Made by a program: the position numbers. A DNA stretch of 64,000 nt from Candidatus Iainarchaeum sp. (GTDB lineage Archaea; Iainarchaeota; Iainarchaeia; Iainarchaeales; Iainarchaeaceae). Where the stretch lies: positions 1 through 64,000 of the forward strand of contig JBDRLP010000027.1 of the NCBI GenBank assembly GCA_043812975.1, written 5' to 3'. Shown here in pieces: positions 27,001-30,000 of the stretch; the first letter of the stretch is position 1, and every line of letters begins with the position of its first letter.

Positions 27001-30000
27001 CCAAAAAAACAGGGGTTTCAATAGTTACTGTGATGAAGCACATAAAACGCCTTGAAGAAAACGGGGTTATAACTCAATATTCTGCGTTTTTGGATTATGA
27101 AAAACTCGGGTTTGATCTTCAGGCCATAACCTCAATCAGTGTCGCTAAAGGTAAGCTTTTTGATGTTGAAAAAAAAATAGCCAGTCATCCAAATGTTACT
27201 GCTGTTTATGACGTTACAGGTCATTTTGATGTTTTTGTAATAGCCAGGTTCAAAAACAGAAAATCCCTTGACAATTATCTTAAAAAAGTCCAGACCTTTG
27301 ATTTTGTTGAAAAAACCGAGACAATAATTGTTTTGAACGCAATAAAAGAGGGGTTGCTCAAACTTTGAATTCTTCCGCATCGGCAATGTACCCTTTGGGA
27401 AGTTAGTTCTATTCATTTTTTCTTATAATTATATGAAAAAATCAATCAAGACATCTTTTGGTTCTATCTTGTTGAAAGAACTTGAAACTGTCACGATTCC
27501 AGATTTACCTAGTCAATCTATTAATTTAAGTTTAAAATCTTTTTTAGCAGATGAACATTTACAATTTAATGTGATTAGCCAAACTAAAGATTACTATTTG
27601 TTAAGCTTGGCAAACAGAATCACAACTCTTCCAAAATATCTGACTCCTAAATTAGCTTATTTTATAGGTTATTTCTATGGAGACGGAGGGTTAAAAAATA
27701 TTGAAAAATCTTTCAAAATCACAGGGCGATTTGATCATAAATTCAAAATTGCAGATGAATTTTTGGTTCAAATTAAACAAATTAAATTTCTTTTTGAACA
27801 TTTGTTTGGTCTTGAAATCCCAGTTAGATTTGAACGAATTCATAAAGGAGAAAGAACTCATTATATAGAAATGACAAATAAAATAATTTACTTGTTTTTA
27901 ACAAAAGTTTTTGGTTTGCCTTGTGGGAAAAAAGATAATAAATTAAACACCCCCCAAATTATTACAAATTCTTCAACTGAACTTCAACAATGGTTTCTGA
28001 GAGGTTTATTTGATGCTGATGGGGATACCAGAGCAGTAGAAGCAGGATTCAAATCTCAATCGAGGGTTAAAATTAGGATGAAACAATTGCATTTTATTTC
28101 TGAGTTAAAACCTTTTATTGAATCTGTCTTTAAAGTTTCAGTTAACGGCCCGTATTTCGATTCTGAGGGGGATTCTGCTTATATTCAGGTTGAAAGACAA
28201 GCTGACATAATTAAACTTTCTGGATTGAATTTGTTTATTCACCCGATAAAAAAGTGGCGATTAAAGAAAACTAGAGAATTTTTGTTGAAAAGGAAGAATT
28301 TAAAAGTAATTGCCGCCGAAACTATTACAATGGGAACGTAGCTCAGCCTGATGCGATTAAGGGTTGAAAAGCTACTTGTTGCAGGCTTAGGAGAGCAATA
28401 CGCTGAAGACGTATGTGTCGCGGGTTCAAATCCCGCCGTTCCCATCTCGACAAGTTCTTCGAGGTCTAGTTTATAGTTTTAAATTAAGGCATTACGGGTT
28501 CAAATCCCGCCGACCCCATTTATTCTCTTTTTACAAAATTTTATTCCAATATTCAATTGCGGGTTCAGGAGAGATGCCTTCAAAATGATGTAAAATTTCT
28601 GCAAAAACTCTTCTTTTGATTTGTTCACTAGCAGGGTATCTGCTAACCATTCGTTTCAGAAACTTGAACGTTTCTCTTGGGCCGATACCGTTAGTTAGAA
28701 AATGTAAAGTTCTATAATTAATTAAATGCTCATAATCCGCAATAAATGCATTGAAAATGCTTGAAGTGCTAGTCCAATCAACATTTTGTTTTTTAGCATA
28801 TTTTAAATCTATAATGCTTACTTTTGAGCCTTTTACAGTAACATTCCTAGAAGCAATGTGCCCATGCGAATATTTTGCGGCGTGCATTTCTCCCAATTGT
28901 CTTGCAAATGCTGACAGCAATTTTTTTATCCTTTGTTTTACCTTGTTTCTATTAAGTTTCGAAATATTAGGTCGGGACAGTCCTGAAATCACTTCCCCAA
29001 TATTCTTTCCAGCATCTTCATACGTTAATTGTTCATTATTTCTACGGGTTATTTTCGGGGTATGAATTCCGTGTTTTTGTAGTTCTCTAGTTATTTCAAT
29101 TATTTGATTTGCGGGGTTTATTTTTCGACTTTTAGGAATCCCATCTGGAGTGCCAATGTACCCATGTAAACCTTTTCTTCTGGCTTCCGAAGGTGCTCTT
29201 ACACTATAACCCAAAACTCCTCCTTCTGAACCAGTTTTAATGGGTTTGACCTCTAAAGGAAGGATATAATCAGTTTCTTTAGGCGGTCTTCTCTGGCCTC
29301 TTTTTATTGCCATATATGAAAGAGCGTTTTTTAGAATTATAATTGTTTCTGTTCCTTTTTTCAATATTTTCCCTTCTTTTATATTATATGATCAATCTTT
29401 CAGAAAAAACAGTAATCGTTACTGGGGCATCAAGAGGAATCGGAAAAGCAATCGCACTTGCTTTTGCAAAGGAAGGATGTAATTTAGTTTTGAATTTTGT
29501 TTCTGATTCGAGTAAAGAAAAAATAGAATCTTTACAAAAAGAGATTTCAGGATTAGGTGTGAAAAGTATCGCTGTTCAGGCTGATGTTTCTAAAGAAGAT
29601 GAATGTAGAAAAGTTTTAGATTCTTGCGTGAAAGAATTTGGTTCTGTTTTTGTTTTGGCTAATAATGCGGGAGTTTATTCAGGTAATCCAGGAACCCCTA
29701 CTTGGGAACTTGATGAACAGGAATTTGACAAAATTTTTTCCATTAATGTAAAAGGGTTATTTTTTATGGCAAAGCATGTCGGCAAATGGATGATTGATAA
29801 TAAAGTCAAAGGAGTGATTGTTAATACTGCTTCAGTCGCGGGTTTGGATGCAAGTGTTTCAGGGAGTATTTACGGAGCGTCAAAAGCAGCAGTTTATAGT
29901 TTTACAAAAACTTGGGCAGTTGAATTCGGAAAAAAAGGAATAAGAGTTAATTCTGTTTCTCCTGGGCCGGTTTTAACTGATTTATTACAAAGCGTTACTG

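Follow-up and report, generated by a model that had tools for sequence, protein, structure and literature searches.

In the window, the 64,000-nucleotide stretch of Candidatus Iainarchaeum sp. DNA that we analysed (contig JBDRLP010000027.1, positions 1 to 64,000), a free-standing LAGLIDADG endonuclease gene runs into the start of a tRNA-Phe gene that carries an intron in its D loop. Our best reading, held with moderate confidence, is that a selfish homing endonuclease gene targeting tRNA-Phe travels here with the intron-bearing tRNA allele, i.e. collaborative homing. Judging from related genomes, enzymes of this kind may spread tRNA introns in these archaea. A new observation is that the intron position within tRNA-Phe varies with the clade of the endonuclease beside it. 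The locus has the following features:

26910..27368, + strand: Lrp/AsnC-type regulator gene (Pfam HTH_24 and AsnC_trans_reg), the left flank of the insertion, outside the element
27433..28341, + strand: free-standing, double-motif LAGLIDADG endonuclease gene, 302 aa, clade A of the tRNA-Phe-linked endonucleases
28299..28306, + strand: TATA-box-like element TTTAAAAG, 33-26 nt before tRNA +1 and within the 3' end of the endonuclease reading frame
28332..28444, + strand: tRNA-Phe(GAA) gene, read by eye
28332..28350, + strand: tRNA-Phe(GAA) exon 1, with acceptor GGGAACG, TA, D stem GCTC and D loop AGCCTG
28351..28389, + strand: D-loop intron, 39 nt, after mature nucleotide 19; boundaries taken from 74-nt intronless relatives
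28390..28444, + strand: tRNA-Phe(GAA) exon 2, whose 5' part holds GGA, GAGC and the anticodon arm ATACG CTGAAGA CGTAT
within 28390..28444, + strand: 3' part of exon 2, with T arm and acceptor CGTTCCC, then A
28494..28518, + strand: orphan tRNA-Phe 3' end, with T arm and acceptor CGACCCC, then A

The open reading frame (ORF) at 27433-28341 overlaps the tRNA gene. Its stop codon TAG (28339-28341) forms nucleotides 8-10 of tRNA-Phe, and its last 10 nt are tRNA nucleotides 1-10, in line with the first-pass annotation, which had placed its end 10 nt inside the tRNA. We infer that TTTAAAAG is the tRNA-Phe promoter. The same TATA-like element and the same Lrp/AsnC-type gene precede tRNA-Phe in genomes G108 and G109 and in G111, which has no endonuclease gene (G000 is the genome of the window). 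The Rfam tRNA model covered just 28384-28436 of the tRNA-Phe gene at 28332-28444, and ARAGORN, with introns allowed, made no call there. tRNA-Phe genes with D-loop introns were annotated with motif scripts and spliced alignment; ARAGORN and Rfam miss the full gene. No RNA run was among the public reads listed; four DNA runs yielded short, low-cover pieces of the contig, none of which bridged ORF and tRNA, and the pieces over 28390-28445 represent tRNA-Phe of other organisms.

The bulge-helix-bulge (BHB) form of archaeal introns consists of a helix, a 3-nt bulge, a 4-bp helix, a second 3-nt bulge and a helix, with cuts after the second nucleotide of each bulge. The intron at 28351-28389 can be folded as a perfect hBHBh', with h CTC/GAG, H AGCC/GGCT, bulges TGA and TAG, and h' TGCGA/TTGCA. 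This motif was present in all 19 D-loop introns found, with 57/57 paired positions in h, 76/76 in H and 93/95 in h', and the h' helix showed many compensatory changes among them. The junction predicted from the BHB motif is the sequence of intronless tRNA-Phe. The host encodes a tRNA splicing endonuclease (EndA; PF01974, 87.6 bits, G000:C42:13945-14199). By its motif, the insert is a canonical archaeal BHB intron, and its splicing is predicted.

The ORF product is predicted to be a bona fide DNA-cleaving, two-domain LAGLIDADG endonuclease in which neither catalytic acidic residue has been lost. The two motifs read ..YFYGDGG.. (GYFYGD84GG) and ..LFDADGD.. (LFDAD196GD). D84 was invariant in an alignment of 31 sequences, and residue 196 was D in seven and E in one of eight orthologues from the order, which bears out the earlier statement that both motifs retain the acidic residue. 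The match to Pfam LAGLIDADG_3 (PF14528) was marginal (23.2 bits, cut-off 22.5); precomputed PF14528 matches were present in 31 of the 41 other homologues listed. A sequence search of solved structures returned one weak match, an I-CreI-derived protein (E 0.015). The AF2 model of the 302-aa product (pLDDT 91.9, pTM 0.91) fits the double alpha-beta-beta-alpha-beta-beta-alpha core fold of LAGLIDADG endonucleases. The top Foldseek matches were the intein endonucleases TliVMA and PI-PfuI, I-DmoI and I-Tsp061I, at probability 1.00, with a TM-score of 0.70-0.75 for I-DmoI (normalised by target).

Position against a tRNA gene is a property of the wider family. Orthologues of the window endonuclease (E<=1e-54) were found in 11 of the 196 genomes compared, the number given by the first-pass annotation, although they fall into six family codes (f1, f4, f10, f12, f13, f21) rather than the seven families it reported. 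It also had tRNA-Phe(GAA) following all 11 at once. In the 10 orthologues with an assembled junction, the ORF stop indeed lay between 39 nt before the tRNA-Phe start and 10 nt inside it; the 11th, in G109, is split over two contigs. Three further endonuclease ORFs in the same genome had been described as abutting tRNA genes, and their geometry was upheld. On contig C6, the stop of g00154, said to lie 15 nt inside tRNA-Gln, forms tRNA nucleotides 13-15. On C36, the open frame of g00892 ends at 18972 and the convergent tRNA-Asp at 18969, i.e. 3 nt apart. On C46, the ORF lies between an intron-bearing tRNA and an orphan 3' end, now assigned as tRNA-Thr(CGT) with a canonical intron (called Ala by ARAGORN) and a Thr(CGT)-like 3' half.

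A tRNA was located at the ORF 3' end in all of the first 30 homologue loci. A tRNA signal was present at 34 of 38 further assessable loci, consisting of 31 T-arm motifs not parsed to a full tRNA and three ARAGORN tRNAs. In total, 64 of the 68 sampled free-standing homologues abut, at the 3' side, a tRNA gene or the T-arm motif of a tRNA. Counted over both strands, the 1.24-Mb genome contains 44 copies of the strict T-arm motif, which gives about 0.012 chance occurrences per stretch examined, or about 0.5 in 38 loci. Both tandem and convergent layouts occur among these loci. At tRNA-Phe itself, no convergent LAGLIDADG ORF was detected in the 300 nt after 131 genes, a span that exposes about 100 C-terminal residues and therefore gives low sensitivity. 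The endonuclease family is a large one within this archaeal order, with the 3' end of each member against a particular tRNA gene.

Within the genus, the gene is optional at this site. G000 has the full endonuclease gene and the D-loop intron, whereas in G111 AsnC is followed by 63 nt and then tRNA-Phe, with neither ORF nor intron, i.e. an empty site. In sister genomes the gene decays in place while the D-loop intron is kept. G109 retains only residues 196-302, with a TAG; G108 retains the last ~57 codons (E 0.012); and G097 retains residues 255-302 (E about 2e-7). The copy in G159 contains an in-frame TGA. Nucleotide identity between G000 and G109 was 66% for AsnC, 84% for the endonuclease remnant, 97% for the intron and 81.5% for SDR, with no clear sign of recent horizontal transfer in these values. 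The introns of G000 and G108 were 85% identical.

To compare introns with and without a neighbouring endonuclease, we used 130 tRNA-Phe genes covering 130 of the 196 genomes, retrieved with a BLAST query biased to genes without a canonical intron, and searched for ORFs over ~580 nt upstream and 300 nt downstream. Introns were present in 29 of the 32 tRNA-Phe genes with an upstream LAGLIDADG ORF, against 13 of the 94 ORF-less genes (81 intronless), a control that had been missing and in which related genomes are not independent. All four genes with only an endonuclease remnant contained introns. The D-loop intron occurred without ORF or remnant in seven genes (G017, G046, G060, G063, G068, G070, G077). 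Conversely, an intact-looking ORF precedes an intronless tRNA-Phe in G112, G136 and G124.

The intron site differed between endonuclease clades. In clade A (support 100/99), 9 of the 10 loci have the D-loop intron, an intron without an ORF of its own in a gene adjoining a free-standing endonuclease gene, against 7 of the 94 ORF-less genes. Clade B (100/98) goes with an intron on the 5' side of the anticodon stem (7/11 vs 6/94), and clade C2 (86/85, not starred) with an acceptor-region intron (5/5 vs 4/94). We counted intron-site changes on the endonuclease tree and compared them with 2000 shuffles, in which kin are not independent. The D-loop intron required four changes, whereas the shuffles averaged 9.35 (1 of 2000 reached the observed value); the corresponding figures were three and 6.51 for the acceptor-region intron (0 of 2000) and five and 8.07 for the anticodon-stem intron (24 of 2000). 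Such a match of clade to site is expected of introns that mark the target site of the enzyme. Simple linkage by descent predicts it too, and related genomes are not independent. Linkage alone, in which the intron is a mere passenger, accounts for most of the statistics. The sole clade-A locus without a D-loop intron, in G162, has an altered D arm (GCTT AGCTGGGA AAGC) and a mature tRNA of 73 nt; the altered stretch is at least 90% conserved per column among 127 genes.

A second system involves tRNA-Gln(CUG). Orthologues of g00154 were present in 26 of the 196 genomes (earlier put at about 25), and tRNA-Gln(CUG) followed in all 23 loci with flank, so that the reported linkage stands with one locus more than the 22 of 22 given before. 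Among these 23 tRNAs, 10 had a D-arm intron and eight none, as previously counted, but five rather than four had only a canonical intron; the eight intronless ones include all six from family f32. The D-arm intron occurred in only 1 of 20 ORF-less tRNA-Gln genes, sampled with a query biased in the same way as for tRNA-Phe; this comparison, too, had been lacking.

From these patterns we propose the following cycle. The enzyme would cut tRNA-Phe genes without a D-loop intron, within the sequence TAGCTCAGYCTG|GGAGAGCA, which is nearly invariant. Repair would copy the donor's endonuclease gene plus the adjoining tRNA-Phe allele, with its 39-nt intron exactly at the place of the cut, and the host splicing endonuclease would remove the intron from the transcript. 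Because the intron would split the recognition site, its carrier should be immune; the intron probably sits in the endonuclease target site. After fixation, the endonuclease gene would decay and be lost, and the harmless intron would stay. Cleavage, cut position, protection by the intron and co-conversion are predictions from sequence comparison. The first-pass annotation had read ORF and intron as one composite selfish element. The comparison supports this in part: the nuclease fold, patchiness, in-place decay and intron linkage agree with it, but the intron is not obligatory, as that annotation had itself cautioned. It is absent from 3 of 32 ORF-linked tRNA-Phe genes, from 8 of 23 tRNA-Gln genes and, among parsed tRNAs beside paralogues, from 7 of 19 (L013, L014, L016-L019, L029). 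Since such intronless neighbours exist, intron protection cannot be the sole route to immunity.

The orphan at 28494..28518 may be what is left of a resident tRNA-Phe gene that was displaced, an indirect footprint of homing. Its acceptor CGACCCC is that of the functional tRNA-Phe in G107, of the same genus, and in G097, and the same orphan lies 104 nt past tRNA-Phe in same-genus G108. Real tRNA-Phe orphans occurred at 2 of 32 loci with an endonuclease gene or remnant and at 0 of 88 loci without one; both cases (G000 and G108) are one event in one genus, and we rejected the orphan as a general footprint. We also rejected a giant tRNA intron enclosing the ORF and a split tRNA of which the orphan would be one half, as no matching 5' half (GGGGTCG..) lies upstream of the ORF in the window; likewise, no Thr 5' half precedes the C46 ORF. 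Integration into a tRNA gene, however, classically leaves the 3' end of that gene as a direct repeat (PMC3293823), and the gene at 28531-29364 beside the orphan is absent from G108 and G109, so that the orphan might be the att-site duplicate of a virus or plasmid integrated in tRNA-Phe, with the ORF as cargo. We consider this extremely unlikely. The orphan is only 49 nt past tRNA-Phe with nothing in between, and its acceptor differs from the functional CGTTCCC at two of seven positions and therefore is no duplicate. The three neighbouring ORFs scanned with Pfam contained no integrase family, and no integrase gene with an att duplicate bounding the insertion was found in the immediate neighbourhood of tRNA-Phe and these flanking ORFs. 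Moreover, the endonuclease gene alone makes the difference from G111, and the same ORF-tRNA layout recurs at the 64 of 68 loci, mostly without an orphan. Alternatively, the LAGLIDADG protein could have been domesticated. No longer a mobile nuclease, it would serve the neighbouring tRNA gene, for instance by aiding splicing in the manner of a maturase or by regulating the gene as a DNA-binding protein of the WhiA type. Foldseek also returned bI3 maturase and WhiA, the ORF is constantly found at tRNA genes with a promoter-like TATA element inside its end, and its orthologues are well conserved, with 36 invariant columns. We nevertheless judge this role very unlikely, given the patchy occurrence, the retention of both acidic residues, the convergent as well as tandem layouts and the same intron in seven ORF-less genomes; in addition, tRNA and intron persist where the ORF is truncated or interrupted (G109, G108, G097, G159), and therefore the tRNA does not need the protein.

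Two other explanations keep the endonuclease selfish and give the introns a different part. In one, which is not our preferred reading but the alternative that we take most seriously, although we think it unlikely, the enzyme targets the edge of the tRNA gene, its promoter or its flank, or else the flank serves only as a safe harbour; the introns would shield nothing, having come along with the co-converted tRNA allele or having been there before. This fits the ORF 3' end, which always lies at a tRNA end, tandem or convergent, and so points to the boundary and not to the interior. It also fits the intronless ORF-linked tRNAs and the clustering of intron sites by clade. Random founders, however, would have left mostly intronless neighbours, as are 81 of the 94 ORF-less genes, and not introns in 29 of 32. 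The three clades each have their own intron site, the sole exception in clade A is mutated exactly where the intron would sit, and, to judge from the orphan, it was a resident tRNA-Phe gene itself that broke and was overwritten. A distinctly less probable account has introns made de novo at each cut site and not transferred: the endonuclease would repeatedly cut the tRNA gene of its own genome, and rare repair insertions that fold as BHB, are spliced out and destroy the target site would be selected. That intron site follows endonuclease clade would be explained, as would the very different sequences and lengths (32-44 nt) of the D-loop intron interiors, with only the BHB-needed parts conserved, and the highest count of introns, four in the single tRNA-Phe gene of G070. 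Yet related loci share homologous introns (G000/G109 97%, G000/G108 85%, and G011/G015), and therefore introns were inherited and moved as units. All 19 D-loop introns share exactly the same insertion point and bulge sequences, which suits a single origin with later spread at least equally well, and no intermediate or failed insertion was seen.

If collaborative homing is correct, successive invasions by different endonuclease lineages would pile up introns at different tRNA positions. Tentatively, and with more doubt than confidence, we extend this to homing endonucleases as the machinery, acting on DNA, by which non-canonical tRNA introns are placed and spread in these archaea and perhaps in others, each lineage recognising a single stretch of one tRNA gene and driving into populations an allele interrupted just there by a small BHB intron. 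How protein-spliced introns arrived at so many archaeal tRNA positions is a standing question, for which earlier models invoke integrases (PMC3293823). The locus and its relatives offer a concrete candidate mechanism with natural replicates, as at least three endonuclease clades occupy one tRNA gene with intron sites of their own, and all stages of the homing cycle are present within one genus. As far as literature searches show, it would be the first example of collaborative homing that does not involve a phage group I intron, and it would provide many LAGLIDADG enzymes whose targets can be predicted and are highly conserved. No report of archaeal free-standing LAGLIDADG genes at tRNA genes was found in a literature search that was thin on subscription journals.

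The closest known system is that of cyanophage S-PM2, in which F-CphI cuts the intronless psbA allele and a group I intron prevents self-cleavage (Zeng, Bonocora and Shub 2009, as described in PMC6083498). There, too, a free-standing endonuclease gene adjoins an intron-containing gene, and the intron itself encodes no endonuclease (PMC6083498). In contrast, the present system resides in an archaeal chromosome and not in a phage, involves a LAGLIDADG and not an Endo VII-like enzyme, has a tRNA gene as target, and uses a 32-44-nt BHB intron predicted to be removed by a host protein instead of a self-splicing group I ribozyme. It also comprises a whole family with many tRNA targets, for which cleavage and protection are predicted by analogy. 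In phage T4, mobE mediates trans-homing of the defunct I-TevIII intron (PMC2790892). This resembles our proposal in that a neighbouring free-standing endonuclease mobilises a flank including an intron unable to move alone, but it involves an HNH enzyme, a group I intron and a protein-coding gene in a phage. T4 SegB, a free-standing GIY-YIG homing endonuclease in a tRNA cluster, causes preferential inheritance of the tRNA region, and likewise combines a position among tRNA genes with intronless homing and co-conversion of flanks (PMC2330249). It belongs to another enzyme family and host, and is a single locus without an intron. Here, dozens of paralogues are each tied to one tRNA identity.

The modelled two-domain monomeric fold is that of I-DmoI, I-Tsp061I and PI-PfuI. 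The gene of I-DmoI lies in an rRNA intron. The PDB entry of I-Tsp061I is titled 'archaeal intron-encoded', and archaeal protein-spliced introns with LAGLIDADG genes are thus known. Those three genes lie inside their own intron or intein, whereas the gene described here lies outside, and its homologues are upstream of or convergent to the tRNA; unlike the elements that host the known enzymes, the D-loop intron is far too small to encode an endonuclease. Finally, there is the integrase-based model of archaeal tRNA gene disruption, with the idea that an intron shields a tRNA gene against integrating elements (PMC3293823). It shares with our proposal a mobile element at a conserved tRNA sequence that is linked to intron gain, an intron that blocks the target, and orphan tRNA fragments left as footprints (PMC3293823). 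The agents in that model are site-specific integrases of plasmids and viruses with att duplication (PMC3293823), whereas here a homing endonuclease and recombinational repair would do the work.

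The endonuclease gene in the window runs into a tRNA-Phe gene with a D-loop intron, and the 3' end of a further tRNA lies 49 nt downstream. The features of this locus are as follows.

27433 to 28341, plus strand: LAGLIDADG endonuclease ORF of 302 aa
28332 to 28444, plus strand: tRNA-Phe(GAA) gene, read by eye
28351 to 28389, plus strand: D-loop intron of this gene, a 39-nt insert relative to 74-nt intronless relatives
28494 to 28518: orphan tRNA 3' end of 25 nt, with T arm, acceptor strand CGACCCC and discriminator A

The ORF has two LAGLIDADG-type motifs, ..LAYFIGYFYGDGG.. and ..WFLRGLFDADGD.., and matches Pfam LAGLIDADG_3 (PF14528) marginally (23.2 bits, cut-off 22.5). 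An AlphaFold model of its product, with an alignment of 31 homologues as input, reached a mean pLDDT of 91.9 and a pTM of 0.91. Foldseek matched this model to LAGLIDADG homing endonucleases in the PDB at probability 1.00, namely the TliVMA and PI-PfuI intein endonucleases, I-DmoI (TM 0.70-0.75, normalised on the target) and I-Tsp061I; bI3 maturase and WhiA appeared further down the list. Catalytic residue D84 was invariant (31/31 aligned sequences), and residue 196 was D in seven and E in one of eight orthologues from the order. As the first-pass annotation had stated, the ORF ends 10 nt inside tRNA-Phe(GAA), its last 10 nt being the first 10 nt of the tRNA.

The tRNA-Phe gene was not called by ARAGORN, and Rfam matched its 3' part only. 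The 74-nt intronless relatives read ..GCTCAGCCTG directly followed by GGAGAGC.., and the window intron is inserted between the two. In the order, 19 D-loop introns were recovered, and every one allows the pre-tRNA to fold a complete BHB motif with two bulges of 3 nt each. The outer helix h is CTC/GAG (57/57 pairs), and helix H has 4 bp, AGYC/GRYT (76/76 pairs), with one C-G to U-A double change in G160. The inner helix h' pairs at 93/95 positions and is highly variable in sequence across genomes (TGCGA/TTGCA, TATCA/TGATA, AAAAA/TTTTT and ACGTG/CGCGT, among others). BHB motifs are cut after the second bulge nucleotide, and this rule yields a junction identical to that of the intronless genes. 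Predicted splicing of the window tRNA-Phe would join CCUG to GGAG and produce the mature D loop AGCCUGGGA. Minimum-free-energy folding of the isolated intron segment often preferred another pairing; the BHB motif is a fold open to the segment, not the one of lowest predicted energy. The genome has a gene for tRNA splicing endonuclease (PF01974, 87.6 bits). With introns allowed, ARAGORN miscalled tRNA-Thr(CGT) at C46:669-775 as 'Ala(cgc)' and tRNA-Gln(CUG) at C6:5448-5566 as 'Ser(tga)', because it forced the intron into the anticodon loop.

Gain and decay of the ORF could be followed within one genus. An AsnC-type regulator gene marks the left side in four of the loci listed here.

Genome under study: AsnC, full ORF, tRNA-Phe with D-loop intron, orphan
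G109: AsnC, directly followed by ORF aa 196-302 only (84% nt identity, one TAG), same tRNA and intron (98%)
G108: AsnC, last ~57 ORF codons (E 0.012), tRNA-Phe with intron (85%), same orphan 104 nt downstream
G111: AsnC, 63 nt, 74-nt intronless tRNA-Phe, no ORF
G107: endonuclease of another clade (D), then tRNA-Phe with canonical intron only

In G097, from the same family, ORF aa 255-302 are left (E about 2e-7) and the intron is present. A TATA-like TTTAAAAG lies in the extreme 3' end of the ORF, 33-26 nt before tRNA +1, and also occurs in the ORF-less G111; this element may be the reason why the 3' end outlasts decay. The acceptor stem of the G107 tRNA-Phe, GGGGTCG/CGACCCC, has the orphan's sequence. 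The most plausible source of the orphan is a resident tRNA-Phe gene that an incoming ORF-plus-tRNA cassette would have broken and overwritten, leaving the 3' end; the presence of the orphan in the window and in G108 is one event. The C46 locus has a comparable order: tRNA-Thr(CGT) with canonical intron, ORF, and an orphan Thr-like 3' half from about nt 38.

Two further tRNA genes of this genome have tRNA pieces behind them. At C58:9266-9390 the 3' half of a tRNA-Asn is repeated directly after the gene (~31 nt identical), the repeat having another acceptor strand, and at C23:17921-18090 an orphan T arm with acceptor lies ~70 nt after a tRNA-Arg(GCG). In the window, the orphan and the SDR gene enclose a 277-aa ORF without Pfam match (28531-29364, minus strand). 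It is a second insertion at this locus, since G108 and G109 lack it there.

Clear orthologues of the window ORF (E<=1e-54) were found in 11 of the 196 genomes of the order, as annotated earlier, in six family codes rather than the seven families then given. The claim that tRNA-Phe(GAA) directly follows them held at all ten assembled junctions, where the stop codon lies between 39 nt before and 10 nt inside the tRNA; in G109 the junction is visible despite a locus spread across two contigs, with tRNA-Phe divided between C16 and C100. The D-loop intron was present at nine of the ten loci, G162 having a canonical intron only. Endonuclease loci often lay on short contigs or at contig ends, in this genome on C46 (3038 bp), C43 (3373 bp) and C6 (10893 bp), which suggests that the assembly breaks at these elements, via repeats or population variants.

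The window ORF has many paralogues at 25-35% identity, and 112/196 genomes contained a match at E<=1e-5, a count that takes in intein domains. In a first sample of loci a tRNA was found at the ORF 3' end in 30/30 cases, with partners including Phe, Arg(CCT), several Leu and Gln(CUG); same-strand tRNAs had the ORF stop 9-99 nt inside or just before them, and the others were convergent. A second sample from further down the match list (40 fetched, 2 running off the contig end) gave a tRNA or T-arm motif at 34/38 loci, 31 by the strict T-arm motif only, with the full tRNA not parsed, and three by ARAGORN as a convergent tRNA. One remaining locus had a tRNA on the ORF 5' side and three had none. 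The strict motif occurred 44 times on both strands of this 1.24-Mb genome, a chance expectation of ~0.5 in 38 windows. This family-wide linkage of ORF 3' ends to tRNA genes (64/68 loci) is a rule that the first-pass annotation missed.

tRNA-Phe genes were obtained by BLAST from 130 genomes, the other 66 having no usable match; G057 (which proved to be tRNA-Lys) and G058 (which failed the filter) were left out. Introns were placed by spliced alignment and reading, and ORFs were sought in ~580 nt upstream for most loci. Five intron sites were distinguished: acceptor region (nt 4-10), D loop (after nt 19), D-stem 3' strand (after nt 24), anticodon-stem 5' strand (~nt 31) and canonical. With a query that favours genes without canonical intron, introns were present in 29 of 32 tRNA-Phe genes with an upstream LAGLIDADG-family ORF (3 intronless) and in all four with an ORF remnant only, versus 13 of 94 without ORF (81 intronless). 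No convergent ORF turned up within 300 nt after tRNA-Phe, in a search of low sensitivity. Several ORF-less genomes have tRNA-Lys(CTT) closely upstream of tRNA-Phe.

A tree built on the last 125 residues of each of the 32 ORFs upstream of tRNA-Phe separated the following groups, the clades being well supported.

Clade A (window type), support 100/99, n=10: D-loop intron in 9
Clade B, support 100/98, n=11: anticodon-stem and canonical introns in 7, D-stem intron in 2, none in 2
Clade C2, support 86/85 (not starred), n=5: acceptor-region intron in 5/5
ORFs outside A, B and C2, n=6: mixed intron pattern

Among ORF-less genes these sites were occupied in 7/94 (D loop), 6/94 (anticodon stem) and 4/94 (acceptor region). 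State changes on the tree numbered four for the D loop versus a shuffled mean of 9.35 (reached by 1/2000 shuffles), three for the acceptor region versus 6.51 (0/2000) and five for the anticodon stem versus 8.07 (24/2000). Endonuclease lineage and intron site are linked; since kin share labels, the linkage is no proof of a functional tie. Two further observations favour such a tie. Some tRNA-Phe genes combine their own clade's site with those of others: G069 (C2 ORF; acceptor and D-loop introns) and G159 (A ORF; three introns, the acceptor-stem one after nt 6). Together with G070, which has four introns (acceptor, D-loop, anticodon-stem, canonical) and no ORF, they show the pattern that successive invasions would leave; repeated invasions by different clades would accumulate introns at several sites in one gene. 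Moreover, G162, the sole clade-A locus without D-loop intron, has an altered D arm (GCTT AGCTGGGA AAGC, mature length 73), and in 127 mature tRNA-Phe sequences every column of the stretch TAGCTCAGYCTGGGAGAGCA is conserved to 90% or more. Three or four introns each were seen in L142 (G070), L009 (G159) and L134 (G046). In G107 and G061 the endonuclease gene lies between two tRNA genes, and its open frame starts with tRNA T-arm sequence translated in frame (..GSNP..; L205, 1014-2045, and L008, 166-1215).

A second system involves the C6 ORF, with orthologues in 26/196 genomes. tRNA-Gln(CUG) followed directly in 23/23 loci with flank, in agreement with the earlier claim; the earlier counts of ten D-arm introns and eight intronless genes stood, while canonical introns only rose from four to five. 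The eight intronless genes include all six loci of family f32. As a control, 33 Gln genes away from such ORFs were parsed, 20 of them clearly CUG; one of the 20 (G166) had a D-arm intron and 19 were 73-nt intronless genes. Since the query was blind to genes with canonical intron, the fair comparison is among tRNA-Gln(CUG) without one: D-arm introns in 6/14 ORF-linked versus 1/20 ORF-less genes.

Other LAGLIDADG genes were also noted in this genome. A free-standing ORF at C43:1313-2338 (minus strand; 341-aa frame, weak PF14528 match, E 0.1) is flanked by an upstream ORF ending Hint-N-like and a downstream ORF beginning Hint-C-like, by eye; it looks like a split intein with an endonuclease gene between the halves, which we take to be the arrangement of 'fractured genes'. 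LAGLIDADG_3 matches within frames of 831-1546 aa, at window 50764-51177 (minus strand) and at about ten other genome locations, are probably inteins with endonuclease domains, in which the genome is rich. Further frames resembling the window ORF are C27:129588-131237 (minus strand, 549 aa) and C53:7033-7488 (plus strand, cut by the contig end).

The fold, catalytic residues, patchy distribution, in-place decay and empty site make it very probable that the window ORF is selfish, a homing endonuclease gene linked to a tRNA gene. We consider domestication of the protein quite improbable: a dead ORF leaves both the tRNA and the intron in place. The footprint of an integrase is the most far-fetched of the readings.

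For the full mechanism, in which the endonuclease would cut intronless tRNA alleles, putatively at the intron site, and the D-loop intron would protect its own, we see about an even chance. Since many ORF-linked tRNAs lack an intron, immunity must have another source at least in some cases. An intron that hitch-hikes without protecting is a weaker candidate, somewhat unlikely in our judgement, and spliceable insertions arising de novo at the cut site and then selected are less likely still.

The intron excess at ORF-linked genes and the clade-to-site match fit collaborative homing. Our literature search, with subscription journals mostly outside it, brought up no account of archaeal tRNA genes adjoined by free-standing LAGLIDADG genes, nor of homing endonucleases as a route for BHB introns, and according to a 2026 preprint the way in which archaeal tRNA introns arrive is still open. 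Free-standing homing endonucleases and collaborative or trans homing are already known (PMC6083498; PMC2790892): F-CphI and the psbA intron are the case for which collaborative homing was defined (PMC6083498), and SegB is a free-standing homing endonuclease within a phage tRNA cluster (PMC2330249).
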